Shown here: piece by piece, positions 17,673 through 51,213 of the stretch
How positions within the stretch are numbered: position 1 is the first letter of the stretch
Layout of the letters: the number at the start of each line of letters is the position of its first letter
Source of the DNA: an archaeon GW2011_AR15
Lineage (GTDB): Archaea; Nanobdellota; Nanobdellia; Woesearchaeales; GW2011-AR15
Direction of reading: 5' to 3'
Assembly: GCA_000830295.1 (NCBI GenBank)
Contig: CP010425.1
Span: 544,001 to 608,000 of the forward strand
DNA length: 64,000 nt
Translations under genes and position numbers: made by a program
The notes under the pieces: model-generated
Told to the model about the DNA's origin: nothing
What the model saw: the letters and a program-made list of their open reading frames with translations, nothing else
Database searches by the model: none

Positions 17673-18045
17673 GTAGGGCAGTGCTTAGCTATCGGTGCTT
17701 TAGGAAGGTGATAAAGAATCATCGGTCTTCGGAGGGCTTTATGTCCTCCTTAAGGTGTTTCCATCAATGCTTTCTTAAAGGACTGAGGAAAGTCCACCCA
17801 CTATCGTAGCCACTCGTGAAAGCGAGGCCCTGAAAAGGGCGGCAACCACTCAGAAACGAGACCGCCCATATCCGCTGTGATGCATGCGAAGGCTCTGGTG
17901 ACAGAGCTGAGTTCCTGCTGAGTTTGTTTATGGGAACGGATGAAACGGTGAGCCCTGGCTTGTGCAACCCGCAAGGGGCTCAGTAAAATGCTAAGACAGG
18001 CTATCCTAACGGAGCCTGACAAAAGGTGGCTTACAGCTGCCCTGC
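17673..18045 (+). ncRNA. rnpB: RNase P RNA
   Basis: P1 GTAGGGCAGT/GCTGCCCTGC; CR-I GAGGAAAGTCC 17785-95; CR-V ACAAAAGGTGGCTTAC 18019-34 completing P4; CAGAAAC and TGAAAC conserved regions; TATA-like box upstream, T-run downstream. Confidence 0.95.
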
Positions 18046-36454: not shown

Positions 36455-36532
36455 GGAGGCGTAGTATAACCAAGGCCAACTGATAATGTCGGTTGACACC
36501 ATAGTGGGTTTCGCTACGCTCAAGCCCACATA
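36455..36532 (+). repeat. Degenerate copy of tRNA-Trp 5' end followed by REP-like hairpins
   Basis: GGAGGCGTAGTATAACC vs tRNA GGGGACGTAGTACAACC (14/17); GTGGGTTTCGCTACGCTCAAGCCCAC is a near reverse complement of 50683-50708. Confidence 0.65.
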
Positions 36533-36534
36533 AC

Positions 36535-36663
36535 GGGGACGTAGTACAACCTGGCTAGTATAAGCGGCTCCAGTCATGGAGCGATGAGGCGTAAGCCGAT
36601 GACATGCAGATAAAAGTTCCGGGAAGTAACCGCTGGATCGGGGTTCAAATCCCTGCGTCCCCA
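36535..36663 (+). tRNA. trnW: tRNA-Trp(CCA) with 55-nt intron at 37/38 (36574-36628)
   Basis: Acceptor GGGGACG/CGTCCCC, anticodon stem AGCGG/CCGCT, CCA at 36570-72, T arm CGGGG-TTCAAAT-CCCTG. Confidence 0.92.
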
Positions 36664-36664
36664 C

Positions 36665-36758
36665 CTTATTTTTTTCGTTCTGTTAACTCGTTAACAGAAC
36701 TGGATTTGTTTCCCTCAAGGCTTTTTTAAAGGCTTGGTGAGCATCCCTGCGTCCCCAC
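36665..36758 (+). mobile_element. ~94-bp non-coding hairpin element ending in a duplicated tRNA-Trp 3' end
   Basis: ATCCCTGCGTCCCCAC at 36649-64 repeated at 36743-58; hairpin GTTCTGTTAAC/GTTAACAGAAC; 35-bp core 36705-39 shared with tRNA-Thr locus. Confidence 0.7.
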
Positions 36759-36805
36759 TTTTACTTATAGGAAATATTTTAACCAAGACCGTATTTTTGT
36801 TTAAC

Positions 36806-37657
36806 ATGGATATTTCCTTAGGCATAATAACTTACAAAGACAGGAAAATAGATGGACTTCTGGAAAGCATCAAAAAACAAAAGCTGCAAAAAGTAAGGGT
36901 AAAAGAGATTATCGTCGTTTGCATTGAAGCAGACAAGAGACATATAAGAAATCTGCTGAGAAAATATGGATTTGAGAAAGCAAAAATTCTAACAGAGAAA
37001 AAAAGAAAAGGAAAATACAACGCAGTCAATTTATTTTTTAAAGAAGCAAAATCAGGCATCCTTGTGATGAGCAGCGGGGACATTCTGCTGCATGAAGCTG
37101 CAGTTGAAAGTATATGCAGGCCGTTTTCTGACAGTCGGACAGGCATAGTGGCAGCAAGACCTCTGCCTATGAATATTAATTCCGAAAACATGCTGGGATT
37201 TACTGTTGAACTGCTGTGGGAGCTCCATCACATCATTTCATATCAGCAGCCGAAATTCGGCGAATTTATTGCTTTTAGGAATCTCGGATTTATCTTACCG
37301 AAAACAGCAGTAGACGAAGAGACGATAGCGAGCATAATATATTCAAGAGGATATAAAGGAAGATATGCAGAAAACGCAGTAATTTATAATAAAGGGCCCG
37401 GCACAGTCCATGATTACATAAAGCAGAGGAGGAGAGTGTATTGCGGGCATATGCAGCTTAGAAAAATTTCCGGATATAAAGTTCCGACCTTAGATAGCGT
37501 TAGAATTATCAGCCATCTTCTGAAAAGAAAAGAACTCCTGAAGCATCCACTTAAAGCACTCTATGCCATCTCACTGGAATCTGCCGCTAGAGCCCTTGGT
37601 TTTTTTGACTATATTGCCGGAAAAGATTACGCGGTATGGAAGATAATAAAAAAGTAA
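36806..37657 (+). CDS. Glycosyltransferase family 2
   Basis: RKGKYNAVN, SSGD, GEFIAFR, AVDE, QRRRVYCGH. Confidence 0.85.
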   Translation: MDISLGIITYKDRKIDGLLESIKKQKLQKVRVKEIIVVCIEADKRHIRNLLRKYGFEKAKILTEKKRKGKYNAVNLFFKEAKSGILVMSSGDILLHEAAVESICRPFSDSRTGIVAARPLPMNINSENMLGFTVELLWELHHIISYQQPKFGEFIAFRNLGFILPKTAVDEETIASIIYSRGYKGRYAENAVIYNKGPGTVHDYIKQRRRVYCGHMQLRKISGYKVPTLDSVRIISHLLKRKELLKHPLKALYAISLESAARALGFFDYIAGKDYAVWKIIKK

Positions 37658-38527
37658 TCAAAGGGATTTTTCTGTTATTTCCACTGCTTTTTCTAAGGTA
37701 ATGAATTCAGGCTTAATTCTTTTCTTTAATTTGCTTATGCTGACCGTCCTTGTCTCTGTAAAGAAATTTACCCTCTGAGAGTTTATCAGAAAATCTCTCT
37801 TGAATATTTTTGACAATAAATCTGCTAATTTTGCGAAGGGCATCATAAAGACACTACATAATGGGATAAAGATGATTTTTTTATTTATCATTTTTGCAAA
37901 TTCTCTCACTGAAACCTGCCTTTCTCCTGCAACAACAAACAATTCATTATTTATATCTTTCTCAATAATTTTGATCAGTATATCTGTAAAATCCTCAACA
38001 AATAATGGCTGTATAAGATTCCTGCCTGAATCAATAAGAGGGAAAAACCCTCTTCTTGCCATCCTGAATATTTTCATGAACCTCCTATCTCCGGGCCCGA
38101 ATATTATTCCAGGCCGTAAGATAACATAGTCAAGGCCGGAATCCTTCACAAGCTTTTCTGCCTCCAGCTTTGTTTTCTCATAAGGTGTTCTGGGGTTTGG
38201 CGGAGTATTCTCCTTAGCATTTATGCATGGTTCGTAGATTCCTGCAGTGCTTATAAAAATAAATCTTGCCCCGGCTTTTTTAGCTTCATTCAGCATGTTT
38301 TTCGTCCCGGTAACATTAACTCTATAATGGGAATCGTCAAATGAGTTATCCATCAGCTTCCCGGCCAGGTGGATAACTATATCAGACTTTTTGGCGCAAT
38401 CTATGATTGTTTCTGGCTTTGTTATGTCCCCGCTGAGAAGGTTTAATTCATACCCTCTATTTTTTAGTTTTTTCACAAGATTTTTACCTATAAAACCCCT
38501 ATGTCCAGTAACAAGAACCCTTGCCAT
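37658..38527 (-). CDS. NAD-dependent epimerase/dehydratase
   Basis: LVTGHRGFIG, IHLAG, YEKTK, LRPGIIFGPGD. Confidence 0.9.
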   Translation of the reverse strand: MARVLVTGHRGFIGKNLVKKLKNRGYELNLLSGDITKPETIIDCAKKSDIVIHLAGKLMDNSFDDSHYRVNVTGTKNMLNEAKKAGARFIFISTAGIYEPCINAKENTPPNPRTPYEKTKLEAEKLVKDSGLDYVILRPGIIFGPGDRRFMKIFRMARRGFFPLIDSGRNLIQPLFVEDFTDILIKIIEKDINNELFVVAGERQVSVREFAKMINKKIIFIPLCSVFMMPFAKLADLLSKIFKRDFLINSQRVNFFTETRTVSISKLKKRIKPEFITLEKAVEITEKSL

Positions 38528-38565
38528 AGCAAATTATTTAAAAAAACGAATGCATATAAAAAACC

Positions 38566-39645
38566 ATGTTTCCCACATACGTCAGGCTAGGGTATTCAAT
38601 ACCAGCATACAGGCTGTCAAGAGTTCTGAATCATCCTCTTGCAAAACCGATTAACATCACCCTTTCTGTCACGAACAGGTGTTATTCAAGATGCCGAAGC
38701 TGCAATGTCTGGAAAGTCCATAAAGAGAATCCCGAGATAGCAACCCAGGAGATGACAACAGAAGAATGGGGCAAATGCCTGAAAAGCCTTGGCAGAGGGC
38801 CAATATGGTTCACAATCACAGGAGGAGAAACAACATTAAGGGATGACCTGCCTCAGATAGTTTCGCTTATAGCTAAGCATAACAGGCCAAGATATATAAA
38901 CTTGGCAACAAGTGGCATTTATCCAAAAAAAACAATTAGCATTGTCAGGGAAACTCTGAAGATAACCTCAAAAAACAACATTCTGTTTACTCTTAACCTA
39001 TCTATTGATGAGATTGATGAGAGATATGAAGAAGTAAGGGGCGTCCCAAAAGGCTTTGAGAAGGTAAAAGAGACATTTTTCGGACTGAAAGAACTTAAAA
39101 AAGAATTTCCGGAGTTTGTTCTTGGTGTTAATATGGTAATCTCAAGGCTCAATTATAAGCGCTTTAAAGAAATTCATAACTATATCATGGATAAATTGGG
39201 GCCGGATTCTTTTGTTTCAGAGATTGTAGAAAGGAGAAAGGCGATATACTTTGATGATGACCTTTCAATACCTGATGAGGATGCACAGGAAATACTTAAT
39301 TATCTCATAGAATATGAGAACCAGAAATCAGAGCAGGCAAAAGTAATTGGCTTTTTCAGAAGGCGATATTACAGGATACTAAAAAAAATAATACATGATA
39401 AGAGGGAAGCTATGCCCTCGTATTCCGGGATAGCCTCCTGCACCATCTCTTATAACGGCGATGTATGGGATGCCCCAAAAGAGACAAACATCTTTGGCAG
39501 CCTCAGAGAAAACGGGTATGATTTCAGCAGGGTATGGAAATCAGACAGGGCAAGAAATGAAAGGAAAAAACTGAGAGCAAAAAGAGAGTATTCAACAACA
39601 GCCAACCCCCTGTATACAGATATGCTTTGCAATCTTAAGATATAA
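38566..39645 (+). CDS. Radical SAM protein with degenerate SPASM-like C-terminus
   Basis: CYSRCRSC, TGGE, LSIDE; SPASM cysteines substituted. Confidence 0.85.
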   Translation: MFPTYVRLGYSIPAYRLSRVLNHPLAKPINITLSVTNRCYSRCRSCNVWKVHKENPEIATQEMTTEEWGKCLKSLGRGPIWFTITGGETTLRDDLPQIVSLIAKHNRPRYINLATSGIYPKKTISIVRETLKITSKNNILFTLNLSIDEIDERYEEVRGVPKGFEKVKETFFGLKELKKEFPEFVLGVNMVISRLNYKRFKEIHNYIMDKLGPDSFVSEIVERRKAIYFDDDLSIPDEDAQEILNYLIEYENQKSEQAKVIGFFRRRYYRILKKIIHDKREAMPSYSGIASCTISYNGDVWDAPKETNIFGSLRENGYDFSRVWKSDRARNERKKLRAKREYSTTANPLYTDMLCNLKI

Positions 39646-40860
39646 CTACATAGCCCTGTTCTTTATCATCTTCTCATACATGAAATCAACAAGCTCAGGA
39701 TTCTTGGAAAGATGGACGCACAAGTGGCAGATAAACGGATAGTCTTCCTTTTCTATCTTTTTTTCTTTTATAAGGAAATCATATAATTCTTTTCCCTTGA
39801 ATCTCTTTAGCAGCATGAGGTGCCTGTGCTCTTTCATAAACACCTCCTCCAGCGAAAGATTTTCACTTAATTTTGCAATAGTGTATTCTTCTTTCATAAC
39901 AGCGGGCCCTGCACAGAAAGAGATTCTCTCGTCAGGCAGCAGTTTAAGCATAGTGCAATATAGATTATCAGGATATTCAAACTTGCCTTTGTTCTCTCTT
40001 ATAATCTCATCTTTATATTTTTTCCCGGCTCCAATTGGAATAATCTGCCTCCATCTTGATTGGTGGTGTTCCATTAATTTGGAGAACTTTTTTCTGCTTT
40101 TTTCATAATCACATCTGGAAACTTCTTCAATCTGAAAATCAAACACATTCCAGCCAAAGACATCTTTTGATATGTCCTTGAGTTTGAGGAAACTTTCTTC
40201 ATTTATTCCATATTTTCGATGTCCGATGCCTATGCTTATAGTTATAAATCCATTATATCCGGCGTCCTTTAGCCTCTGCATATATTCCCAGGCTTTTTTT
40301 GGATCGTTGCACCAAAAACCGTTTGTAGTCATTCCAAAAACTCGCATACCTTTTTTTTGGGCCAATTTGATGGCTTTACAAAGATGATCCATATAGAGAA
40401 AAACTTCACCACCAAAAAAAGAAATTTGTCTTATGTTTACTTCTTTTAGTTTATCTATAAACAACTCTATTCTATCGAGTTCCAGTAATTTATGATCAAA
40501 ATTTGTCTGATAGCAATGATCACACCTGTAATTGCAGGCATAGGTCAATATAACAGTGGCATAATTAGCGTAGAATATATATGATGGGTAGAGAAAGAGG
40601 TCATTCTTTACAAGTTCTTTTGAAAATTCAAACTCCAGCTTTTTCAGATCATTGTATGAATTAAGTTTTGTTTTTTTTCCTTTTGTTACTTTATCGAATA
40701 GCTTATATCCAAGTTTTAGTTTACGTATGTTTAATTTTATATAATCTCTGAATTTTTGATAATCACTTTTAAAAGGAGAGCAATAGAAATACTTCAGTCT
40801 GGCCGCAAGGCCAGCCTTATACTTCAGCAACCTGTATTTGTTTTTTATAGTACTGTACAT
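39646..40860 (-). CDS. Radical SAM protein
   Basis: CNYRCDHC, FFGGE, TTNGFW, C-terminal CHLC. Confidence 0.88.
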   Translation of the reverse strand: MYSTIKNKYRLLKYKAGLAARLKYFYCSPFKSDYQKFRDYIKLNIRKLKLGYKLFDKVTKGKKTKLNSYNDLKKLEFEFSKELVKNDLFLYPSYIFYANYATVILTYACNYRCDHCYQTNFDHKLLELDRIELFIDKLKEVNIRQISFFGGEVFLYMDHLCKAIKLAQKKGMRVFGMTTNGFWCNDPKKAWEYMQRLKDAGYNGFITISIGIGHRKYGINEESFLKLKDISKDVFGWNVFDFQIEEVSRCDYEKSRKKFSKLMEHHQSRWRQIIPIGAGKKYKDEIIRENKGKFEYPDNLYCTMLKLLPDERISFCAGPAVMKEEYTIAKLSENLSLEEVFMKEHRHLMLLKRFKGKELYDFLIKEKKIEKEDYPFICHLCVHLSKNPELVDFMYEKMIKNRAM

Positions 40861-41378
40861 TCTATTCCTTTAGAGGATAATCTCTTTTTCATTGAATCTA
40901 AATGGTCATTACCAAGTATTACATATACCTTTTTAATGCTTTCTTTTAAACAGTCTTTACTGATTTCTTCAATCATTGCAGTTTCTCTTTTTTTTATGAA
41001 ATATTCTTCAAAAACAGGATTGTTAGTATTATTAGACCCTGTAGTTGCCATCCTAAAGAGATCTTTTATATTGGAATCCCTATAGAATTGCTTTGCTAAT
41101 TTTATACCTTTTATATCTATATATTTGAATTTAAAACCCTCTTTTTTTAGATATTCTGTCAGGTGATAGAATTCATAAAATCTGGTCTTTTTTAATCCAA
41201 AAATCCCACTAAAAAATCTGGCAGTTATGGTCTTTCTCCGGTGTTTTTTGTATCTTAACATATCATATTCAAGCAAAATAAGAGCATTTTTTGCATTAGA
41301 GTTATTAAGAATAGTTTTTACTTTTTGAAAAGAGGTTGGGTTATTATGCTTAACCCCCATGATAATAATCTTACTCAT
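40845..41378 (-). CDS. Hypothetical, distant TraB-like fold
   Basis: IIMGVKH, LLEYD, KRETAM, VILGNDH parallel TraB motifs. Confidence 0.5.
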   Translation of the reverse strand: MSKIIIMGVKHNNPTSFQKVKTILNNSNAKNALILLEYDMLRYKKHRRKTITARFFSGIFGLKKTRFYEFYHLTEYLKKEGFKFKYIDIKGIKLAKQFYRDSNIKDLFRMATTGSNNTNNPVFEEYFIKKRETAMIEEISKDCLKESIKKVYVILGNDHLDSMKKRLSSKGIECTVL

Positions 41379-41606
41379 ATTAAGGCGACATAGTTTTTGT
41401 CTAGATTAATTTAACTGTTTTATGAAGGCTTTAAATTATATCTTCTCAGAATTCTGTTTCCAAAAACCTTTTCTTTAATGAAAGTAAAGACTCTTTCTCC
41501 GAAGCTTTTATACATGGCTATAATAAGAGTCTTCCCTTTTATATATTTTTCGGGCGGGAGCAGCTACCAAAAGGTTTTTTAAGCATTAGTACTTAATTTT
41601 AAGATT

Positions 41607-43115
41607 ATGAATGAGAAAAAGAAAATACTGTTTATCAAATATTTTACTCCGGCAAACTTTGACCAGCGCACTATTGGAGCCATACTTAATCACAGATACG
41701 ATGTCAGCTACCTGACTATCCTAAGCGATGATGGTTTTAAGTCGCTTAAAGGAGAAAAAACCCACGACAGAGAGAATTATCGGAAACTTGGCAAATTCTG
41801 CAGCAACTACGATTTCATACTTATAGGCGCGCTATCTTTTGATGAGAAAAGGATATTTGAGTTTATAACCTATCTAAATAGGAATTATCCGGATCTTAGA
41901 CTCCTCCTTGGGGGGCCGTTGGCAATGGCAGAACCTGAAAAATGCCTGAAATATGTTGATTACCTTTGTATCTGGGACGCATATAATATAATGCAGCTTT
42001 TTGACTATATTGAGACAGGGAAGTTTCCTGAAGGAGGGTTGGATAATTTTGTGATAAAGGGAAAAAATGAGTTTCCAGGATTATCATTGCCAAAGACTTA
42101 TGATGAATACCCGGTCCCAGATTTTGCTTCTGAAGAAAATTATTCTTATCTTAATGGAAAATTGATGAAACTAGGTAAATATACTCCAAAAATGGTTTAT
42201 TTTGAAACAGAAAAAGGATGCATCTTCAACTGTAGTTTCTGTTCTATTTCTCATTATAACAAAATAAAGCGTCAAAATAAAATGCCTCTTGTAGTAAAGA
42301 GCTCTATGATAGTTGTCTTAGAGAAACTTAGAAAAATAAAATCCAATTTAAGAAAAGATGCATGTATTGACATCTTGGACGATAACTTTTTTGTCTATAG
42401 TGAAGAAGAAATACAATATTTTGTTGATCATTATGACAAAGAGATAGGTCTTCCTGTTATAATTCAAACCGACCCCAGATCAGAAAATTTCATTGAGAAG
42501 TTTAGGATTATTTCTAAAATAAAAAATATGAAAGTATTTGCGTGCGGAATTCAAACTGGATCAGAGCAATTTAATCTGAGAGTATACAACAGATCTCAGA
42601 AAAATAAGCTCATAATAGATAACCATAGGTCTATGAAAAAAATAATGAGACGACAGGGTGTGAAATTTACAGTCTTATATTATATAATATACAATAACCC
42701 ATTAGAGAAAAGAGAAGATGTTCTTGACACAATTAACCTCATGCTTAATCTTAGAGGGAAGGAGTTTGAATTCCAGCTAAATGCCTATTCGTTAATACCT
42801 TCAACAATACTTGGAGAGAGATTAAAAGACTATTATAATGATATATATACTTTCAGAGACCCGCAGTTTAATGTTTTCAGAAAAAATGCATTCTATAATC
42901 TATTCCTTTTTATCATAAACAAAATTAATTTTATGGGTGCAGATTTCCTCCTGCCAAGCAAATTTAAGGAGAATATAGTTACTGAACTATTGAACAATAA
43001 ATTCCTTGCAAAGCCGTATTACAAAGCATTAATAAACGCTACATATACTCACGAAAAAAGAAGGCTACAAAAAGAAAGAGAGGACATTCTAAAGAGAGCC
43101 ACGATAATTGCATAG
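41607..43115 (+). CDS. B12-binding-domain radical SAM protein (class B methyltransferase-like)
   Basis: LLGGPLA, ETEKGCIFNCSFC, LDDNF, GIQTGSE. Confidence 0.88.
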   Translation: MNEKKKILFIKYFTPANFDQRTIGAILNHRYDVSYLTILSDDGFKSLKGEKTHDRENYRKLGKFCSNYDFILIGALSFDEKRIFEFITYLNRNYPDLRLLLGGPLAMAEPEKCLKYVDYLCIWDAYNIMQLFDYIETGKFPEGGLDNFVIKGKNEFPGLSLPKTYDEYPVPDFASEENYSYLNGKLMKLGKYTPKMVYFETEKGCIFNCSFCSISHYNKIKRQNKMPLVVKSSMIVVLEKLRKIKSNLRKDACIDILDDNFFVYSEEEIQYFVDHYDKEIGLPVIIQTDPRSENFIEKFRIISKIKNMKVFACGIQTGSEQFNLRVYNRSQKNKLIIDNHRSMKKIMRRQGVKFTVLYYIIYNNPLEKREDVLDTINLMLNLRGKEFEFQLNAYSLIPSTILGERLKDYYNDIYTFRDPQFNVFRKNAFYNLFLFIINKINFMGADFLLPSKFKENIVTELLNNKFLAKPYYKALINATYTHEKRRLQKEREDILKRATIIA

Positions 43116-43119
43116 ATAT

Positions 43120-44124
43120 ATGAAAAAATTTAAGGCAATATTGAGAGGCAGCAGGAAAGTCCTTCTAATAACTTCCTCCGGATATATGAATCTGGGTGGA
43201 GAAGCAGTTGTCCATAAGATAATAACTGAGGTCCAGTCAGCAAATCCAAAATCCCGGCTGAGAGCTACTTCAAGCAACCCTGGACACTCAGAGAAACTGC
43301 ATAAATTTGAAAATATCAAATTCATAAATTCTCTCTCAGTCAAACTTGTTTCCAATCTATTGTTAGCAGACACAATTGTTATTGCAGGCGATGAGATTAC
43401 TTCTGCCAGGCTTAATCAGCTTTACCCAGGAGTTCTGTCATATCTTCAGGGAAAATTCAGGATATTTGCTGCAGCTCTTGGAGTATTTTTAGGGAAAAAA
43501 GTCATTTTCTACAAGATCGGTCTGTATTCTTTTCAAAACAATTTCCCAAAAGGTGCCCTTAATTACGCACTAGAGAATTCAGTTCTTATTGTTGCAAGGG
43601 ACAATGAAACAAAAAAACAGCTTAGGTTGTTCGGGTGCAGAAAAGAAATCCAGGCTGGGAGAGACCCCGGTTATGATGTGGAATACCGGAAACAGAAGGG
43701 AACTAGAGGGATGGGCCTGATATTGAGCAACCCCCTCAATGACAGAAAAGAGCAGAAATTAACACAATTCCTGAAAAGCCTGTCTGACAAAAAGAAAAAG
43801 CGCAAACTCTGTTTCTTTGTTTTCTGCAGACATCCGGAAAAAGAAGCGGAAAATGATTTAACTTTTGTCAATAAAATAGTTTCTAAGCTCGGCCTGAAAA
43901 AGAAAGATTATGAAATATTTGTCTCAGATGAGCCCGCCAGAGTCAAGTCAAAAATGTCATCTATGTCTTTTATTATAACCTCAAGATATCACGGCGCAGT
44001 TTTCGCAGATTCAACAAAAGTCCCTTTCATTGCACTGCCCGTCAGCAACAAATTAAGGGCATTCGGAAAAAGGACAGTTGAATTCGAGGAGCTGGAAAAT
44101 TTTAACTTAAACCATATCAAGTAA
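43120..44124 (+). CDS. Polysaccharide pyruvyl transferase family protein
   Basis: GYMNLGGEA, IVARD, DPG, ITSRYHGAVFA. Confidence 0.8.
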   Translation: MKKFKAILRGSRKVLLITSSGYMNLGGEAVVHKIITEVQSANPKSRLRATSSNPGHSEKLHKFENIKFINSLSVKLVSNLLLADTIVIAGDEITSARLNQLYPGVLSYLQGKFRIFAAALGVFLGKKVIFYKIGLYSFQNNFPKGALNYALENSVLIVARDNETKKQLRLFGCRKEIQAGRDPGYDVEYRKQKGTRGMGLILSNPLNDRKEQKLTQFLKSLSDKKKKRKLCFFVFCRHPEKEAENDLTFVNKIVSKLGLKKKDYEIFVSDEPARVKSKMSSMSFIITSRYHGAVFADSTKVPFIALPVSNKLRAFGKRTVEFEELENFNLNHIK

Positions 44125-45309
44125 CTTCAGCTTACCTCGCTCAGAGAAGCCAATCTTTTTATTGATTGTAACACTGACTTTCTTAAAGGCTAATTTCATA
44201 AATGCTTCTTTAATTTCCCCATTGATTTCCTTGTCATGCACTTGTTTTGGGAGTATGTTTATTGTTAATCTGTTCCCAGAACACTTAAAAGTAAATAACT
44301 TTACGGTCTGGAAATCAAGCATCTTATCTACCATATCCCCAAGATAAACCTCTTTTTTTCCTGCTTTTATGAAATCGCTTTCCCTGCCTAAAATACGCTT
44401 TATCCTGCTGTTTTCAGCCATTACAAGGTCATCAGTCCTGTATCTTATCAAAGGCATAAAATAGTTTGAGAGAGAAGTGATAACCGGTCTTTTTATCCCT
44501 GGTTTTCTTGTATCTTCAAATTCAAGGACCACACTATCCCAGTTTGTCTTATAGTAGGTCATGCCAGGCTTCCTGTAAGCAGCAATATTGAACTCAGTGA
44601 GCCCATAATTGTCGGAAACAGGACAGCCAAATCTTTTCTCAAAATATGCTCTCATTTTCTCTGTCAAAACCTCCCCAATGCAGAATATTCTCCTTAGCTT
44701 CAGGCTTCTCAGATGCTTTTCATCAAAAGAATTCGCAAGTTCGAGAAGCTTGAACGGGAAATAATAGAGATACTTTATTTTATGTTTTCGGATAATCTCA
44801 ACTTGCTTTTCAGGGTTGGAATCCTGCCTTATTATGACTTTCCTGCTTATCCCAAATTTGTTGAAGAAACTGTTGCTTTCTTCTCTGTACCAGTAGAATC
44901 CAAGCTTCCTGAAAGGAGTGTATCCCTGGTCCATCAGTGTTCTGATAAAAATGGCGTTGTTGTAATCATTGGCCTCATCATCAAGGTAAACAGAGAATTC
45001 TTCTCCAGTAGTCCCGCTTGTGTATGTGACTTTGTAATCTTTCATCTTTTTTCTGTCAATCAGCTTCCTATAGTTTTTTAGAAGAGCAGACTTGTCCACA
45101 CAGGGGATTTTTTTAATATCTTCAAGGGCCCTTAACATATTAGGATGAAATTTTTTTTTTGAGTAGAACTCCCTGTAAAACTGGTTATTCCTGTATGCAT
45201 GATCCACTATGTTTTTCAGAAAAAAAAACTGGAGATCTCTCTTTTTTCTGTGGCTGAATTTATCCTGACTGAATATCTTGTATAAGTAGTAGAGCTCTCT
45301 TAAAAACAT
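44107..45309 (-). CDS. Phenylacetate-CoA ligase/CapK-like adenylate-forming protein
   Basis: YTSGTTG, IGEVL, NYGLTE, MPLIRYRTDD, GRESD. Confidence 0.85.
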   Translation of the reverse strand: MFLRELYYLYKIFSQDKFSHRKKRDLQFFFLKNIVDHAYRNNQFYREFYSKKKFHPNMLRALEDIKKIPCVDKSALLKNYRKLIDRKKMKDYKVTYTSGTTGEEFSVYLDDEANDYNNAIFIRTLMDQGYTPFRKLGFYWYREESNSFFNKFGISRKVIIRQDSNPEKQVEIIRKHKIKYLYYFPFKLLELANSFDEKHLRSLKLRRIFCIGEVLTEKMRAYFEKRFGCPVSDNYGLTEFNIAAYRKPGMTYYKTNWDSVVLEFEDTRKPGIKRPVITSLSNYFMPLIRYRTDDLVMAENSRIKRILGRESDFIKAGKKEVYLGDMVDKMLDFQTVKLFTFKCSGNRLTINILPKQVHDKEINGEIKEAFMKLAFKKVSVTINKKIGFSERGKLKLLDMV

Positions 45310-45347
45310 AAAAATATAGAGGGAAACGTAATATTAAAGCTTATTGC

Positions 45348-47183
45348 TTATTTATGGAATTTTTTAACAAGCTCCATGATTTCTTTGCCCGGCGCCTTTC
45401 CCCTCAGCTTTCCCATAACCTTTCCTATTACAGCATTCCTGGGAATTCCTTTATTCTCTTTCAGTATTTTCTTCACTTCTTTCTCAAGCAATTTTCCCGT
45501 CAATGGCTTATATTGTTTATAGTCAGGTGATTTTCCTTCTGCAATGCCGATAAGTATCTCAAAGACAGCATCATCTGTTATCAAACCCCTGTTCAGTTTC
45601 TCCAGTATTCCAGGAGCGTGCTTCTCAATCTCGATTTCCTTATTATATCTCTTTTTTATCTCCTTCGGAGATTCTATAAGTGTCCTTGCTATAAAACCCG
45701 GCTCTACTTTCCTGTATTTCCTGACGTATTCTTCAAAATCAATGCCTTCATCGACAACCTCTTTCGCAAGCTGTCTACTGACATTATACTCTTTTGCCAG
45801 TCTATTGATTTTTTCAGGTATAAGTTCAGGCAGCTCTACAGACCCAAGAAGCTCTTCTGTGACATCAATATTAGGTATATCTGTCTCAGGATAAAGCCTG
45901 TTGGCCCCTGGAAGGGGCCTTGCATAAGAATTTGTGGCATTGTGATGGTTTGGAATCCTTGTTTCTTCGGGAACTCCTTTCAGACTATATAGGGCCCTCT
46001 CATAGACAGCGTCTGCGGCTTTTTCTGCAATTGCTTTCTTCTCTGCCATCACAATTATCAGGTCATTTTTTCCTGCCTTGAATAACTTCCTAAGCTCTTC
46101 AAATTCTTTTCCAAGGTTGTATTTTGAAAGATCCTCATCAGTATGTATCATTCCCTTTGTGCCGTAAGCCATTGCGTATTCCGCAAGCTCTTTCCCGAAT
46201 GTCTTCTCAGGGCACAGCTCTTTTTTCAGCAATCCTGAGAAATTTGGGAGAAGAAGGGCAATAACAGAGCCGCCGCTCTGTATTATGCCTGAAATCATCC
46301 TTGACTCGGAATTTCTGAACAGCTCTGTGGCATCTTCTGTTTTCTTGCTGAATTTTCCTGTTTTTCTTTTTTTCAGTTCTTTCTTTATCTCAATCAGGTT
46401 ATACTGCCTCAATACTTCATTTTCAATCAGCAGCTCCAGCTTTTTCAGGTCCTGCCAGCCCTTTACCTCTATTCTTGCCCCTTCTTTAATCGATATATTT
46501 ACGTCCTGCCTTATTGAGCCTATACCTCTCCTTACATTAAATGACCTCAAAAGAGTCCCTATTGCCAGGGCGGTTTCCCTCACATGCTTAGGGTCTTTTA
46601 ATGAGGCATCCGTGCCGATTTCAAGCAGGGGTACACCGAGTCTTGAAAGGGAATAGTATACAGCATCGCCTTCTTTTTTCTCTATCTTAGAAGAATCTTC
46701 CTCGAGGTTAAGCTGGACAATCTTTACTCTGCCTTCAGGAGTTTCAAGGAACGAATCCTTATTCTCATAGCCAAGCAGCATTGTCCTCTGGAACCCTGAT
46801 ACCGCAGAGCCGTCTGTCACTGTCTTGCGCATCACGCATATTGTTTCCGGGACATTCAGCTTAAACATCTTTGCCACGCCAAGGCCGATCATAAGCGCTT
46901 CATTATTGACAGCATGAGGAGGTTCCTCATCAAGCTCGACAAGGCAGTATTCACCTTTATAGCCGTGGTACAGAAATTTCCTGTTCCTGAACTGCTCATA
47001 CTGGGCTGCAAGGTCAACTTCTCCTGTCTCTCCTGCAGATGCCCTCAGCTTTCTCGAGGTCTCGGAAATAAGCTCTTTTTCCCCCATGCCGGAAGAGCAG
47101 TCGCAGAACAACTTTCCAGTGTTAAGCTCCTGATGTATCTCAATGCCTGCTTTGAATCCCAGTTTATTGTAATCTACCTTCAT
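45348..47183 (-). CDS. gatE: Glu-tRNA(Gln) amidotransferase subunit E
   Basis: GIEIHQEL..KLFC, CLVELDEEPPH, RRGIGSIRQDVNISI, RPLPGANRLYPETD. Confidence 0.97.
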   Translation of the reverse strand: MKVDYNKLGFKAGIEIHQELNTGKLFCDCSSGMGEKELISETSRKLRASAGETGEVDLAAQYEQFRNRKFLYHGYKGEYCLVELDEEPPHAVNNEALMIGLGVAKMFKLNVPETICVMRKTVTDGSAVSGFQRTMLLGYENKDSFLETPEGRVKIVQLNLEEDSSKIEKKEGDAVYYSLSRLGVPLLEIGTDASLKDPKHVRETALAIGTLLRSFNVRRGIGSIRQDVNISIKEGARIEVKGWQDLKKLELLIENEVLRQYNLIEIKKELKKRKTGKFSKKTEDATELFRNSESRMISGIIQSGGSVIALLLPNFSGLLKKELCPEKTFGKELAEYAMAYGTKGMIHTDEDLSKYNLGKEFEELRKLFKAGKNDLIIVMAEKKAIAEKAADAVYERALYSLKGVPEETRIPNHHNATNSYARPLPGANRLYPETDIPNIDVTEELLGSVELPELIPEKINRLAKEYNVSRQLAKEVVDEGIDFEEYVRKYRKVEPGFIARTLIESPKEIKKRYNKEIEIEKHAPGILEKLNRGLITDDAVFEILIGIAEGKSPDYKQYKPLTGKLLEKEVKKILKENKGIPRNAVIGKVMGKLRGKAPGKEIMELVKKFHK

Positions 47184-47222
47184 AGTATAGGTGATATATA
47201 TAATCTTTATATAGATTTTGCG

Positions 47223-48062
47223 TTAAGCTGAATCTTGTTTCTTCATCCTTACTATTCTCTCATTTTTTTTTGTAGTTATTTTTGGTATTTTAGTCTTCAC
47301 TTCTTTTTGCCAAAACGCATCATCAAAAATAATTTCTCTTACCCAGGGTAAATGACCGTCATGTGAAAATATAACTCCATTAGGAACGATTAACGGATAT
47401 AAATTTTTCAGACATATTTTTGTGGAAGAAGCATAGTCAACATCTAGGAAAGCAACTGCAATATTTTCATCAAAAGAAGGCATTGTTTTTTCAAATAATC
47501 CCTTTATAAATATACAGTTGTCAATTTCCCCATATCTCTTTACGTTATTTTTCACTTCATCTAGAGATCCTTTAAATAATCCTTTTTTGTAGAGCTCTTC
47601 AAGAAATAGTTTCCCTTCTTTCTTTTTATCAGGTTCAGGCAGTCCTTCAAAAGAGTCAAATACATAGAGTTTCTTGTTTACCAATTTTGCAGCTATGCTT
47701 AGTTTACAAGTGCTTGCTCCTTTCCAACATCCTGCCTCCACAAGTATCCCTTTAAGGTTAGATAGTTTTAATATTTCTGTAATAATTTCAAATATCTCTT
47801 TTTGAGAATGATAACCCTCCACATTTTTAGAAATAATATGGGCTCTTTTTATTATCTCAACTTTCTCTTTAAAACTGATTCCCAGATTTTCCTTTAAAAA
47901 CCGGGAGTATGTAAAAATATTAGCTAAAGGATAAAAAATACTAATTGCATTTATAATAAATTTTGGTATGATTTTCTTCAATATGCTCTCTATGCTGGGA
48001 GGCAGGCGCCCTTCTTTCAATAAATAAATGGGCTTGTTGATAACCGGTTTAGCAGAGGACAT
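47223..48062 (-). CDS. TylF/MycF family O-methyltransferase
   Basis: VEAGCWKGAS, FDSFEGLP, IKGLFEKT, FLDVD; AT-rich. Confidence 0.88.
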   Translation of the reverse strand: MSSAKPVINKPIYLLKEGRLPPSIESILKKIIPKFIINAISIFYPLANIFTYSRFLKENLGISFKEKVEIIKRAHIISKNVEGYHSQKEIFEIITEILKLSNLKGILVEAGCWKGASTCKLSIAAKLVNKKLYVFDSFEGLPEPDKKKEGKLFLEELYKKGLFKGSLDEVKNNVKRYGEIDNCIFIKGLFEKTMPSFDENIAVAFLDVDYASSTKICLKNLYPLIVPNGVIFSHDGHLPWVREIIFDDAFWQKEVKTKIPKITTKKNERIVRMKKQDSA

Positions 48063-48147
48063 TGAGAGTAATAATACTCTCTCTCTTTATATTATTTCTT
48101 AACATTTTTTCAAAAACAATTTAAACACCATTTCATTAGCTATTCCA

Positions 48148-48546
48148 ATGAGAACATATACCAGAGAACAACTCCTGTTTTACCTCACAAGCCTTTCTAA
48201 AGAACTGAAGAAAACACCGACGATAGATGACATGAACAGGAAAAAAGACTATCCTTCCGCAGCCACCCTTGCAAAAAGGTTCGGCTCCTGGAACAATGCC
48301 CTCAGGAAAGCGGGCCTCAAGGTAAATGTGAGGAAGAAATACACGAAAACAGAGCTTCTGGACAACCTGAAACTGCTTGCGAAGGAGCTTGGCAGGCAGC
48401 CAAAATCAACTGATTTAAAGGGCAAGAAATGGGCGGCTTCATATACGACTTACAAGAAGCACTTTGGCAGCTGGAAAAAGGCCCTGGACTTGGCCGGGGT
48501 CACGGAAAGCAGGGTAGTCAATCTCAGGAAATTCTCAGGGAAGTAA
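48148..48546 (+). CDS. Stand-alone homing-endonuclease-associated repeat protein (two repeats)
   Basis: Two YT..LL..L..L.KEL...P....RFGSW..AL..AG repeats; no HNH motif. Confidence 0.8.
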   Translation: MRTYTREQLLFYLTSLSKELKKTPTIDDMNRKKDYPSAATLAKRFGSWNNALRKAGLKVNVRKKYTKTELLDNLKLLAKELGRQPKSTDLKGKKWAASYTTYKKHFGSWKKALDLAGVTESRVVNLRKFSGK

Positions 48547-48584
48547 TAGAAATACATTTAAATTAAGTTCCATTGATTTTTCCT

Positions 48585-50351
48585 ATGTTGTATAAAGAGC
48601 TGGCAGAGCTGTATAAGAGGCTGGACAGCACCTCAAAAAGGCTTGAAAAAACATACTATATCTCTGAACTTATTAAAAAGACGCCGAAAAAAGACCTTGA
48701 GAAGGTTGTTTTGTTGGCGCAGGGGAAGATATTTCCGGACTGGACAGATAAGAAGATAGGTGTGGCATCAAAACTCGTTGTAAAGGCAATAAGCAAGGCT
48801 ACAGGAGCCTCTGTAAGGGATATTGAGGAAGCATGGCGGAAGCACGGGGACCTGGGCGATGTTGCCCGGAATCTGCTGGAAAAGAGAAAGCAGGCCTCTT
48901 TAATGCCAAAGGAACTTGAGCTTGACTGGGTTTTCATGTCTTTAAGGAAGCTGGCTGAGCATGAGGGCAAGGGCAGTGTGGAGAGCAAAGTTACGCTAAT
49001 CTCCGAACTTCTCATAAATGCAGGGCCTGATGAAGCCAGATACATAACGCGAACAGTGCTTGATAAGCTCAGGGTAGGCATAGGCTCAGGAAGCATGAGG
49101 GATGCCATAATCTGGGCTTTTTTCTCCGAAGAGCTTGGCATAAGGTACAACAGCGGGAATAACGATATTGAGCTTTCTGAAGCTGACAGGGCGAAATACA
49201 ACCAGATGTCAGAGAAAGTCCAGTATGCATATGACCTTATCAATGATTTCGGGGAATTGGCATTAAGGCTGAAAGAACGCGGACTAAAGGGGCTTGACGA
49301 AGTTTCTCTGGAGGTTGGAAAGCCTATAAATGCAATGCTTTTCCAGAAAGCCAAGGATATCGGGGATGCTTTTTCAATAGTGGGCAAGCCTGCAGCATTT
49401 GAGTACAAGTATGATGGTTTTAGGATGCAGATTCACATAGTCCAGAGTAAAGTCCAAATATTTACAAGAAGGCTGGAGGATGTTACAGAGCAGTTCCCTG
49501 AGGTTGTCGATGCGCTTAAAAAAAGCATCAGGGCCAAATCATGCATCCTGGATGCAGAGGCGGTGGGGTATAGCCCGGCCACAAAAAAATACGTGCCTTT
49601 CCAGAAGATATCCCAGAGGATAAAGAGAAAATACAATATAGATGAAATGGCCAAAAAGTTCCCTGTTGAAATCAATATATTTGACATAATCTACTATGAT
49701 GGCAAAAGCACTATCAATGAGCCTTTCCATGAGAGAAGGAAGTTCCTTGAAAAAATTGTGAAAGAAAAGCCGTTCAGCCTGGTTCTTGCAAAACAGCTCA
49801 TTACCTCAGACGAAAAAGAAGCCCAGGATTTCTATAATGAATCCCTGAAAATGGGGGAAGAGGGAGCAATGGCGAAGAACCTCGAAGGCATCTATAAGCC
49901 AGGCTCAAGAGTAGGATATGGTGTCAAGATAAAATCAATAATGGATCCCCTTGACCTGGTTATAGTCGCTGCTGAATACGGGGAAGGCAAAAGGTCAGGA
50001 TGGCTCACAAGCTTCTATCTTGCATGCTCTGACAACGGGAAACTGGTCGAGATAGGGAAAGTAAGCACAGGCCTGAAGGAGCTTGAGGAACAAGGAACTA
50101 CCTTTAAGGAGATGACAGGGCTGCTGAAGCCCCTGGTAAGAAAATCCTCCGGGAAATTTGTTGAGCTGAAGCCCGAAATAGTGATTGAAGTCGGGTATGA
50201 GGAGATACAGAAGTCGGTAAATTATTCTTCAGGATATGCCCTGAGGTTTCCAAGGTTCATCAGGCTCAGGACCGACGAGAAAACAGTAGATGACATCAAT
50301 ACAGCCGAAGATGTTGAGCAGCTGTACGAGCAGCAGAGGGCGAGAGGTTAA
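48585..50351 (+). CDS. lig: ATP-dependent DNA ligase
   Basis: EYKYDGFRMQIH, LDAE, EEGAMAK, ALRFPRF. Confidence 0.97.
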   Translation: MLYKELAELYKRLDSTSKRLEKTYYISELIKKTPKKDLEKVVLLAQGKIFPDWTDKKIGVASKLVVKAISKATGASVRDIEEAWRKHGDLGDVARNLLEKRKQASLMPKELELDWVFMSLRKLAEHEGKGSVESKVTLISELLINAGPDEARYITRTVLDKLRVGIGSGSMRDAIIWAFFSEELGIRYNSGNNDIELSEADRAKYNQMSEKVQYAYDLINDFGELALRLKERGLKGLDEVSLEVGKPINAMLFQKAKDIGDAFSIVGKPAAFEYKYDGFRMQIHIVQSKVQIFTRRLEDVTEQFPEVVDALKKSIRAKSCILDAEAVGYSPATKKYVPFQKISQRIKRKYNIDEMAKKFPVEINIFDIIYYDGKSTINEPFHERRKFLEKIVKEKPFSLVLAKQLITSDEKEAQDFYNESLKMGEEGAMAKNLEGIYKPGSRVGYGVKIKSIMDPLDLVIVAAEYGEGKRSGWLTSFYLACSDNGKLVEIGKVSTGLKELEEQGTTFKEMTGLLKPLVRKSSGKFVELKPEIVIEVGYEEIQKSVNYSSGYALRFPRFIRLRTDEKTVDDINTAEDVEQLYEQQRARG

Positions 50352-50382
50352 TTTTAAAAATTAGTGATTGATCCTATAAAAA

Positions 50383-50544
50383 ATGGCAAAATGTTCAATA
50401 TGCGGAAAAAAGATTGAAGAGATATTTCTTGGAAAAATACTGGGCACGTATATCAGGAATGAAAAGGGCAAACAGTATGCAGTCTGTTTTGAATGCCAGA
50501 AAAAATTCAGCACGAAAGACGAACTTCTCAGGAATATCAAATAA
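50383..50544 (+). CDS. Small Zn-finger protein (53 aa, not in ORF track)
   Basis: MAKCSICGKKIEEIFLGKILGTYIRNEKGKQYAVCFECQKKFSTKDELLRNIK*. Confidence 0.75.
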   Translation: MAKCSICGKKIEEIFLGKILGTYIRNEKGKQYAVCFECQKKFSTKDELLRNIK

Positions 50545-50583
50545 ATTTTTAAACAGGCTTGTTGTCTAGCAGAATTATAGGCT

Positions 50584-50667
50584 GCCCCTGTAGCTCAGCG
50601 GGAGAGCGGCGGTTTCGTATGTTACAGAAAAAACCGCAGGTCGGGAGTTCAATCCTCCTCAGGGGCT
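50584..50667 (+). tRNA. trnT: tRNA-Thr(CGT) with 12-nt intron at 37/38 (50620-50631)
   Basis: Acceptor GCCCCTG/CAGGGGC, U73, D stem GCTC/GAGC, anticodon stem GCGGT/ACCGC, CGT at 50616-18, T arm GGGAG-TTCAATC-CTCCT. Confidence 0.9.
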
Positions 50668-50668
50668 T

Positions 50669-50852
50669 GTAGTAAAATGAATATGGGCTTGAGCGGAGCG
50701 AAACCTATTTGTTTCCGCCAACGCTTTCCAAAAGGGTTGGTGTAATCCTCCTCAGGGGCTTTCCACCAGGAACTGGGACTGAGCAGAGCGAATGTCGCAC
50801 ATGTTTCGTTCAACCCTTTCCTAAAGGGTTGGTGGGATTCAACTCAGGGGCC
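50669..50852 (+). mobile_element. Two tandem ~93-bp hairpin elements each ending in a copy of the tRNA-Thr 3' end
   Basis: AATCCTCCTCAGGGGCTT 50651-68 repeated exactly at 50744-61; CTCAGGGGC again at 50843-51; each unit has TGAGCRGAGCGAA and CAACSCTTTCCWAAAGGGTTGGTG. Confidence 0.75.
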
Positions 50853-50877
50853 TGTATTAACATGTTGGATTAGGGAA

Positions 50878-51213
50878 ATGAAAATAATAGCAGTAGTAAA
50901 CGACCTCTTCTTTGCAGCAAAGATAAGGGAGACAGCAAATCAGCTAGGTATAGAGCTGCTCATAATAAGGAATAAAGAAGACTTGTTTAGGCAGCTGGGC
51001 GGCTCTGAAACATACAAGCTCATAGTTGATCTGAATTTCAGGAGCTTTGACATCCTAGGAGCACTCAGGGAGGTAAAGAAAAAACACACAGTCTATACAA
51101 TAGGCTATCTTTCGCATGTCCAGGTTGAGCTGAGGAAAAAAGCAGAGAAATGCTGCGACCTGGTGCTGCCGAGGAGCGCATTCTCAGAAAGGCTTCCAGA
51201 GTTATTGTCTTAA
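50878..51213 (+). CDS. Stand-alone atypical receiver-like protein
   Basis: IIAVVNDLFF, LIVDL, IGYLSHV, VLPRSAF. Confidence 0.65.
   Translation: MKIIAVVNDLFFAAKIRETANQLGIELLIIRNKEDLFRQLGGSETYKLIVDLNFRSFDILGALREVKKKHTVYTIGYLSHVQVELRKKAEKCCDLVLPRSAFSERLPELLS

Follow-up and report, generated by a model that had tools for sequence, protein, structure and literature searches.

Short two-hairpin elements set between intact and spare gene ends in the genome of the archaeon GW2011_AR15

Introduction

T-loop-type att sites, in which a block of identity extends from the T-loop to the 3′ end of a tRNA gene, were reportedly described by Williams in 2002, and archaeal tRNA introns “transposed” to non-canonical positions such as 58/59 are said to have been the subject of the work of Fujishima et al. 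in 2010. In mitochondria, mobile open reading frames (ORFs) carry a duplicate of the C-terminus of a gene, and their integration displaces the resident end, a behavior that integrative elements share. Here we analyze a stretch of 64,000 nucleotides (the window) of the chromosome of the archaeon GW2011_AR15, in which a tRNA-Trp and a tRNA-Thr gene are each followed by a small non-coding element and by a spare copy of the end of the gene. This element belongs to a family with members at the ends of other tRNA genes and of protein genes.

Other described systems come close in one trait or another. Double-hairpin elements reportedly occur in Allomyces mitochondria (Paquin et al., 2000, cited in PMC3787672), a tRNA-Thr locus of Caldiarchaeum has a tRNA fragment left beside a recombinase-bearing insert (PMC3293823), and the small RNA (sRNA) element of Pyrobaculum, which resembles a miniature inverted-repeat transposable element (MITE), has inverted repeats and is hence a different thing (PMC6009581). 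In the literature that was searched, elements of the present kind were not found described; PMC11782384 proved to have no bearing on them. Likewise, Rfam at gathering score recognizes only tRNA and RNase P in the window and assigns the element to no family, while E-value scans of the tRNA-Trp and tRNA-Thr loci gave best other matches of E 0.7 to 4.6, which is chance level.

Anatomy and target sites of the element

The host chromosome (labeled G000 hereafter) is one contig of 1,157,790 bp with 42.5% G+C, of which the window covers bases 544001–608000; coordinates preceded by G000:C1 refer to the whole genome and all others to the window. Iterated nhmmer searches of this chromosome collected 23 copies of a type-1 unit, in addition to a partial match inside the RNase P RNA. 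Twelve copies lie at tRNA 3′ ends (the tandem behind tRNA-Thr(CGT) being counted as two), two at tRNA 5′ ends, one in the intron of tRNA-Gly(CCC) and eight at the ends of protein genes. The original prediction of a non-coding, non-autonomous, multi-copy element with a conserved and covarying core is thus borne out. It had named a dispersed repeat indifferent to tRNA genes as the outcome that would overturn it, and this is not what was found: tRNA genes, though only a few percent of all genes, hold 15 of the 23 copies. Among the protein-gene hosts, Pfam identifies Cpn60, Hsp70, a class II aminoacyl-tRNA synthetase (aaRS), PTH2 and Nop10; the remaining three are without Pfam match, one of them being read as pilin-like at its N-terminus. 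As these protein-gene sites demonstrate, the element can be sited without tRNA structure; it is neither tRNA-specific nor a classical integrase scar. Targeting of the T-loop, as first proposed, therefore stands in part: nucleotide 58/59 is the usual start of the repeat at tRNA 3′ ends, whereas tRNA 5′ ends, an intron, the RNase P RNA and eight protein genes are hosts as well.

The type-1 unit is 60–90 nt long and consists, in this order, of a T-run, a variable hairpin 1, a conserved linker YTGTTTYS, a hairpin 2 (CAAnGCTTT...AAAGGnTTG) and a tail such as GTGAG. Hairpin 1 falls into several classes, namely a long perfect palindrome (CGTTCTGTTAAC...), a related form (TCGGACTAC...), a GA-motif stem, and others. 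In the GA-motif class GA...GA flank a covarying 2-bp stem (AC/GT, GC/GC, CC/GG or CT/AG) with a loop of 3–5 nt; this is K-turn-like, but its bulge geometry is atypical, and the motif is absent from the other classes. The closing pair of hairpin 1 is G-C in G000 and A-T in its congener G003, a compensatory change. As for hairpin 2, among 21 family members 96% of cells are paired and five of the nine pairs are changed on both sides, one of them being U-A in ten sequences, C-G in six and G-C in five; a G.G mismatch is conserved in 14 of the 21. None of 500 shuffles reached its covariation score. The closing pair of hairpin 2 is U.G in nine sequences, which favors the sense strand, and a G.U strand test over the whole element (20 of 414 pairs in sense, 26 of 388 in antisense) was not decisive.

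Flanking direct repeats beat all 200 shuffles in 20 of the 23 copies, with lengths of 9–56 nt, those of the protein-gene copies, at either 5′ or 3′ ends, measuring 22–56 nt. What is repeated is without exception the terminus of the gene, with the stop codon in it at 3′ ends, and with the ribosome-binding site, start codon and initial few codons at 5′ ends. Wherever the orientation was examined, hairpin 1 points towards the intact gene and hairpin 2 towards the spare copy, so that the element is in sense at 3′ ends and in antisense at 5′ ends. The same polarity holds in G004 (also a congener), in G005 and in metagenome contigs. In 14 of the 23 copies the 15 nt upstream of hairpin 1 contain a TTTT, as against 10% of random positions; on the other side, the joint falls 0–6 nt from hairpin 2. 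The spare copies end in T-runs, without CCA.

Two sites depart from the ends of genes. The 80-nt intron of tRNA-Gly(CCC) (G000:C1:617016–617166; also L142 and L096) consists mostly of a complete antisense element, together with a stretch complementary to the anticodon region, and the same arrangement occurs in a metagenome contig; here the element is either inside a tRNA intron or the source of one. In the RNase P RNA (17673–18045), helix P3 holds an element-like insert (17731–17783, plus strand; nhmmer E 2.1e-5), within an expansion of 83 nt relative to the Rfam model that comprises a hairpin GGAGGGCTTTATGTCCTCC, a linker GTGTTTCCA and a stem-loop similar to hairpin 2. The CTTTATG-loop hairpin of this insert recurs beside hairpin 2 in several metagenome contigs.

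Some further details of these structures deserve mention. At the insertions at 5′ ends (G000:C1:28859–28969 and 32846–32948) a short upstream ORF begins at the spare start codon; it comprises 36 codons at Cpn60, runs through the antisense element and stops just before the true start or overlapping it. The idea that the outer boundary of the repeat marks a transcript end was dropped for Cpn60, where the stop codon of the preceding gene, read as groES, is the starting point of the repeat. Five tRNA introns (36572–36626 of tRNA-Trp in the window; G000:C1:618352–618478, 769787–769896, 869719–869844 and 1111523–1111659) share a small hairpin, GATGAG-stem-loop-CGATGA, of K-turn or box C/D-like appearance and similar to the GA-motif hairpin 1. 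Hairpin 2, in turn, can hold nested mini-hairpins CAAAAA-N6-7-TTTTTG (G000:C1:24565–24687; L012 of G004; L209 of G005), which also occur downstream of tRNA-Ala and at G000:C1:863004–863176 and constitute a second small palindromic family.

The tRNA-Trp and tRNA-Thr loci of the window

Both loci of the window, which also contains the archaeal RNase P RNA and further tRNAs, display this anatomy. The tRNA-Trp(CCA) gene (36535–36665, plus strand; Rfam tRNA, 44.8 bits) has a 55-nt intron (36572–36626) and carries an element on either side. The one at its 3′ end (36666–36742, plus strand; nhmmer E 8.5e-14) is made up of a T-run (36666–36676), hairpin 1 (36677–36700), a linker to 36714, hairpin 2 (36715–36737) and a tail to 36742. 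Behind it the last 16 nt of the gene (36649–36664), from T-loop nt 59 to the discriminator, are repeated with 16/16 identity at 36743–36758 (plus strand; offset 94), with a T-run after them. The element at the 5′ end (36472–36534, minus strand) is antisense to the tRNA, with a hairpin 1 of the tandem-GA type adjoining the gene and hairpin 2 distal, and has an ortholog in G003; the spare 5′ end beyond it (36455–36471, plus strand) is decayed, 14 of its 17 nt being identical to 36535–36551.

Behind the tRNA-Thr(CGT) gene (50584–50667, plus strand; Rfam tRNA, 54.2 bits) two units follow each other, all in the same strand as the gene. The proximal element, E1 (50668–50743; nhmmer E 1.8e-13), has a tandem-GA hairpin 1 (50683–50708), a linker, hairpin 2 (50718–50740) and a tail GTGT, and is followed by a first spare copy of the last 18 nt of the gene (50744–50761; 18/18 identical, from T-loop nt 58; offset 93). 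The distal element, E2 (50762–50835; nhmmer E 3.6e-12; hairpin 1 at 50774–50801, hairpin 2 at 50810–50832), precedes a second, decayed spare copy (about 50836–50852), which is exact only over CTCAGGGGC at 50843–50851. E1 and E2 carry different variants of hairpin 1, and therefore the array would have grown by separate insertions beside the intact tRNA.

All the tail duplications that the original prediction had located behind these two genes were recovered at the same positions. The 35-nt cores at 36705–39 and 50708–42 agree in 28 of 35 positions, as it had stated, and differ by a compensatory change (CAAG/CTTG against CAAC/GTTG) that fits the covariation of the family; the 5-nt spacing between GGTG and the 3′ strand of the T-stem is likewise found in all three units of the window. 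Three other runs have contigs spanning the arrays, with 0 differences (X6, 36620–37421; X8, 49564–51100; X9, 49947–51100), so the duplications are not assembly artefacts. The metagenome runs that contain the sequence come from groundwater and soil. Relatives of a 611-aa protein encoded in the window occur in metagenome-assembled genomes that bear the labels Woesearchaeota or Nanoarchaeota; the host is accordingly a DPANN archaeon of the Woesearchaeota type. A joint in X1 between 36663 and 36755 was considered as an empty tRNA-Trp site and rejected, since it skips 91 nt instead of 94 and its shorter side measures 21 nt; it is probably from another organism.

Tail duplications at tRNA genes across the genome

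The scan of all tRNA genes for duplicated 3′ ends, which the original prediction had called for, gave a clear result. The set consisted of 39 ARAGORN predictions, introns being allowed (Infernal gives 36), and many of these tRNAs bear introns. Names of tRNAs in intron mode are unreliable as ARAGORN labels: tRNA-Trp(CCA) is called Arg-cct and tRNA-Thr(CGT) Phe-aaa. The own 3′ 12-mer of the gene recurs 20–150 nt downstream, with at most one mismatch, in 17 of the 39, as against 2 of 1388 pairs with foreign tails, 0 of 39 for the own tail in the opposite strand and 0 of 39 for the own tail upstream. A chance origin of the repeats is excluded. Decayed copies exist at three more genes (Ser-TGA, Ser-GCT and Ile), and a tRNA near G000:C1:763000 that ARAGORN missed has a perfect one, giving a total of about 21 of 40 tRNAs.

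Most of the repeats are perfect, and mostly their first letters are AATCC or ATCC, which puts their start at nt 58 or 59 of the T-loop, directly after a tail GTGAG or GTGGG. Polarized arrays in which the distal copy is the more decayed, already proposed for the tRNA-Thr locus of the window, occur at tRNA-Thr-CGT, His and Thr-TGT. At tRNA-Arg, Glu and Thr-TGT there are shorter units with the GA-motif hairpin only. A scan for large integrated elements, that is, for distant copies of tRNA ends, found only similarities between isoacceptors and a few stray fragments, and a query made of a T-loop followed by the decayed spare end of tRNA-Ile matches a real tRNA in 0 of 401 genomes of the order.

The tRNA-Pro(CGG) gene, with its element and a 16-nt spare end, is followed at G000:C1:769587–769656 by 50 nt that correspond to the 3′ half of another tRNA-Pro(CGG) allele, from the anticodon arm to the 3′ end, whose stems carry compensatory changes; an earlier replacement of the 3′ half of the tRNA would seem to have left this trace. 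From the anticodon list, read by eye, several expected species (for example Asp, Phe, Lys-UUU and Glu-CUC) went undetected by ARAGORN and Infernal in G000 and may be more heavily disrupted genes. There are two genes for tRNA-His and, at G000:C1:331291, a second tRNA-Trp-like gene, which has no intron.

Occupancy in relatives and metagenomes

BLAST finds the core in 17 of 19 other genomes of the family, part of the signal being the tRNA itself, and close relatives differ in the occupancy of individual sites. The element at the 3′ end of tRNA-Trp is absent from the orthologous site in five relatives; in G003 this site is empty while the 5′ copy is present, with a perfect 17-nt repeat (spare end 17/17). 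The tRNA-Thr(CGT) site is empty in four of four relatives. The PTH2 site is occupied in G000 and G003 but not in G001, G002 or G004, and an element at the start of Cpn60 is present in G000 and G005 and missing from G001, G002 and G003. G004 is without several of the copies present in G000, and 3 of 18 sampled tRNAs are occupied there, one of these recognized by eye only, including tRNAs that are empty in G000. In G011 the 16-nt 3′ repeat of tRNA-Trp surrounds an unrelated insert of 110 nt. The D-loop of the same gene (L007/L025) holds a 19-nt insert with a 4-bp hairpin, a GGAA loop and a 6-nt direct repeat GTACAA, which may be a tiny non-canonical intron or another target-duplicating insertion.

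Beyond the family, a loosened core pattern has matches in many metagenomes, and 13 of the 72 matches away from contig ends show clear repeats, among them tRNA 3′ ends, tRNA 5′ ends and an intron of the tRNA-Gly type. In one of the metagenome contigs (L103), two identical tandem units of gene 3′ end plus element are followed by a diverged gene end with two synonymous changes and one non-synonymous. Arrays thus can also form at the ends of protein genes, and can grow by unequal recombination. A collection of viral contigs gave 0 matches to the core pattern.

What spare and functional gene ends reveal

At protein genes the two copies of the end differ in ways that are nearly all synonymous. Across six genes, the codon differences amount to ten synonymous changes and one stop-to-stop change against one non-synonymous: TTT/TTC in the aaRS; AAA/AAG in Cpn60; ACT/ACC and TAT/TAC in the gene at G000:C1:863915–864460; ACA/ACT, CTA/CTT, AGG/AGA and TAA/TGA in that at G000:C1:1013711–1013875; CAC/CAT and ATC/ATT in Nop10; and CCA/CCT plus the non-synonymous codon in PTH2. 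Decay alone of an unselected copy should give mostly changes of the non-synonymous type. Furthermore, the spare end of PTH2 in G000 encodes a complete C-terminus of another kind, PDDEDKIDKITGSLKLI followed by a stop of its own, where the functional gene ends in DGITSELKLM and stop, and in G003 the orthologous element is accompanied by a shorter and different spare end, DKVTSELKLV and stop. Since these spare ends are intact alternative C-termini with stops of their own, they must once have been functional alleles. To judge from such codon comparisons, recombination between diverged lineages has evidently acted at these protein-gene loci.

Cpn60 presents the other side of the matter. Its repeats measure 48 nt in G000 and 32 nt in G005, with different boundaries, and each matches the allele of its own genome (MAAK in G000, MGSK in G005), as predicted by duplication of a resident target.

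The search for an enzyme

The absence of integrase or transposase genes near the element, noted from the letters of the window, was confirmed: the only tyrosine recombinase of the genome above the Pfam cut-off, a 319-aa Xer-like protein encoded beside eIF2-alpha, lies at 1.154 Mb, outside the window. A 165-aa ORF at G000:C1:119542–120039 holds a partial catalytic domain of a tyrosine recombinase (26.5 bits, just under the cut-off); it adjoins an AAA ATPase about 4 kb from tRNA-Leu(TAA) and may be the remnant of an integrated element. An apparent resolvase in G000 is actually a TrmB regulator. The reverse transcriptase domain RVT_1 is found in 0 of the six genomes of the genus, G000 included, and in 3 of 20 of the family, which are not element-rich. 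Given the presence in G000 of a TrmI/GCD14 homolog (92 bits), methylation of the T-loop to m1A57/58 is plausible. A virus-borne enzyme is conceivable.

Possible origins of the duplicated gene ends

The explanation that we favor, giving it about an even chance, is that of a family of 60–90-nt non-coding and non-autonomous insertion elements that duplicate their target and have become widespread in this genome and in its taxonomic family, with a later exchange of alleles between lineages. From the anatomy, copy number, repeats, polarity and target list, together with the presence or absence in relatives and the allele-like differences, we infer an origin of the repeats by target duplication, a machinery acting in trans and the order of the events. 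Each insertion would occur at the outer edge of a gene and duplicate the 9–56 nt that it straddles, the gene being kept intact on the side of hairpin 1 and a spare terminus being left on that of hairpin 2. One joint lies in or next to a T-rich tract, which in tRNA genes is the oligo-T terminator, and the other 9–56 nt further into the gene, in tRNA genes within the T-loop at nt 57/58 or 58/59. The stagger of such an insertion would be long and variable, and new copies, by entering beside the intact gene, would give rise to polarized arrays. After insertion, homologous recombination between diverged lineages would reshuffle the loci, and because of it the spare and functional copies of protein genes would differ like alleles; copies may also be lost through recombination between the repeats. 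In such a compact genome, only insertions whose duplication covers the end of the gene would survive, and the antisense orientation would be enforced at 5′ ends because T-runs in the sense strand would stop archaeal transcription. Selection alone fails to explain why all 3′-end copies are in sense, so the joint at the T-tract is probably part of the mechanism. In our view target duplication gave rise to the repeats, and the exchange of alleles came later or was the means by which a cassette spread between lineages; the reverse weighting is a serious rival.

Several observations weigh against this explanation. The differences between gene ends are near-purely synonymous, and the functional end could have arrived together with the element from another lineage. 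The repeats range from 9 to 56 nt, a spread much wider than in the target duplications that known DDE transposons make, and terminal inverted repeats are absent: the first 15 nt agree with the reverse complement of the last 15 in 6, 1 and 5 of 15 positions in three copies of the window. RVT_1, Cas1, Y1_Tnp, DDE_Tnp_1 and the TnpB zinc ribbon have no match in G000, other transposase families not having been searched. Empty and filled alleles within one population were not seen, the X1 joint from 36663 to 36755 being the sole candidate. Finally, clear repeats accompany only 13 of the 72 metagenome matches, and therefore many copies are old, or are not insertions of this kind.

The reverse weighting would have a cassette, composed of a gene end and the element, arrive from another lineage by homologous recombination within the gene and an illegitimate joint at the end of hairpin 2; the resident end would become the spare copy and the repeat would never have been a target-site duplication. 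We hold this to be unlikely, even though it accounts for the excess of synonymous and stop-to-stop differences (ten and one, against a single non-synonymous codon), for the intact spare ends of PTH2 in G000 (PDDEDKIDKITGSLKLI) and G003 (DKVTSELKLV), with their different left boundaries and coding-like mutual divergence, and for the half of another tRNA-Pro(CGG) allele, 50 nt long, behind tRNA-Pro. It would also explain why hairpin 1 always points towards the gene, and the named hosts are highly conserved genes that would serve as homology anchors. What it leaves unexplained is the spread of one family to more than 20 genes of one genome and the constancy of a supposedly illegitimate joint, always 0–6 nt from hairpin 2; moreover, the spare copies of Cpn60 match the own allele and not a foreign one in both G000 and G005, the repeats at tRNAs are mostly perfect, and the spare end of tRNA-Ile corresponds to no real tRNA end among the 401 genomes. 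That the unit is instead a functional RNA module (a terminator, or a processing or RNP-binding unit, for instance with L7Ae on hairpin 1) held in place by selection, the repeats being incidental, we consider improbable. The covariation of hairpin 2 and its U.G closing pairs, the compensatory change in hairpin 1 between G000 and G003, the tandem-GA hairpins in tRNA introns of G000 and the tolerance of a unit inside RNase P RNA all speak for it, but occupancy varies among congeners with most orthologous sites empty, copies at 5′ ends and in the intron are antisense, repeats of protein-gene ends serve no purpose in RNA, and Rfam has no matching family.

A mini integrative element, or att scars left by it, with a tyrosine integrase crossing over in T-loops and supplied in trans by a virus or plasmid, is distinctly improbable. 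In its favor, the arrays are polarized, the identical stretch reaches from the T-loop to the end of the tRNA gene as in T-loop-type att sites, a tRNA fragment lies beside a recombinase-bearing insert in Caldiarchaeum (PMC3293823), and G000 has its integrase fragment of 165 aa near tRNA-Leu(TAA). One family with more than 20 different targets, 5′ ends of protein genes included, and with repeats of 9–56 nt does not fit a tyrosine integrase, however; the integrase complement of G000 is the Xer-like gene beside eIF2-alpha only, the core is missing from the viral contigs, and the element would need the specific 3′ end of each tRNA to keep that tRNA functional. The original prediction had also allowed for excision scars, which are unlikely because the copies share one constant unit of hairpin 1, linker and hairpin 2. 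m1A58 blocks reverse transcriptases, as in the stop at the retroviral primer-binding site, and a retro-type insertion can be imagined in which cDNA is primed on the U-tail of a transcript, stops at m1A58, jumps to the RNA of the element and is inserted at the oligo-T terminator. The inner boundary at nt 58/59 and the TrmI/GCD14 homolog, the T-runs at which spare copies end like primary transcripts, the enrichment of T-runs at the hairpin-1 joint and the variable repeat lengths, as in target-primed reverse transcription, agree with such a route. We nevertheless judge it highly improbable, in view of the distribution of RVT_1 (0/6 in the genus; 3/20 in the family, in genomes not rich in elements), the lack of CCA in the spare copies, the start of the Cpn60 repeat at the end of the upstream gene read as groES, not a likely transcript start, and the different series of steps that insertions at 5′ ends would need. 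Lastly, the probability of an assembly or chimera artefact is practically negligible: de Bruijn contigs of some runs do break at the repeats (record 17 of X8 starts at 36649), but three further runs span the arrays unchanged, and the same architecture is seen not only at more than 20 loci but also in genomes of congeners and in metagenomes that are unrelated.

To return to the preferred explanation, target-duplicating insertion: of the tRNA genes that can be detected in this near-minimal archaeal genome, about half carry units. If these are mobile without a transposase of their own, an insertion activity so far unknown would exist in DPANN archaea, whose source might be a host enzyme, a virus or a recombination pathway. 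In turn, the spare gene ends would be small fossils of past alleles, recording recombination between lineages that cannot be cultured. A bolder synthesis, which we regard as quite unlikely, would see here a new class of archaeal mobile DNA that does not have to encode an enzyme itself, enters RNA-defined landmarks of highly expressed genes (the oligo-T terminator, m1A58), uses the spare gene end as a portable homology arm for homing into every lineage in possession of the gene, regardless of the sequence behind it, and also seeds tRNA introns, as in tRNA-Gly-CCC, and expansions of RNase P RNA. If true, it would offer DPANN archaea a direct route to intron gain and to fragmented tRNA genes.

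Comparison with known systems

Like MITEs, the element is short, non-coding, present in many copies, flanked by direct repeats of its target, variably present in relatives and devoid of an enzyme. Unlike them, it is strictly oriented with respect to the host gene; it has no terminal inverted repeats, its duplications (9–56 nt in 20 copies) are not of fixed length, and no cognate transposase was found among the families searched in G000. Integration of the casposon or CRISPR type accords poorly with the variable repeat length and with the lack of a Cas1 match in G000.

With integrative elements of tRNA genes it shares the duplication of the 3′ end from the T-loop, the intact gene, the polarized accumulation and an allele-like spare end. 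Indeed, a block identical to the tRNA 3′ end stands on both sides of the insert at 17 of 39 tRNAs, mostly from nt 58/59, as at att sites. The family has no single att core, though, nor an integrase in the element or the cell (where only the Xer-like protein and the 165-aa fragment were found), and it differs in being gene-free, 60–90 nt long and inserted at more than 20 targets, among them 5′ ends of protein genes. The primer-binding sites of retroviruses and the LINE/SINE retroelements recall it in the 15–18-nt block of tRNA 3′ end to nt 58, the variable duplications and the T/A-rich joint, but here the block is in the same sense as the tRNA and without CCA, and RVT_1 is absent from the genus.

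Archaeal introns of the bulge-helix-bulge (BHB) kind are approached by the copy in tRNA-Gly(CCC), and the joint in the T-loop coincides with non-canonical intron positions. At tRNA 3′ ends, where the proximal tRNA is complete, nothing has to be spliced out, and only the copy in the tRNA-Gly(CCC) intron would behave as such an intron does. These two features together make the origin of archaeal tRNA introns and split tRNA genes a testable matter. Finally, the double-hairpin elements of Allomyces and the mobile ORFs of mitochondria differ from the present family in that its host is an archaeal chromosome, it has no endonuclease ORF and its main targets are tRNA T-loops and terminators; what they have in common is a small unit of two hairpins, sites between genes and in structural RNAs, and gene-end duplicates that look like diverged alleles, which is a likeness of form and outcome.

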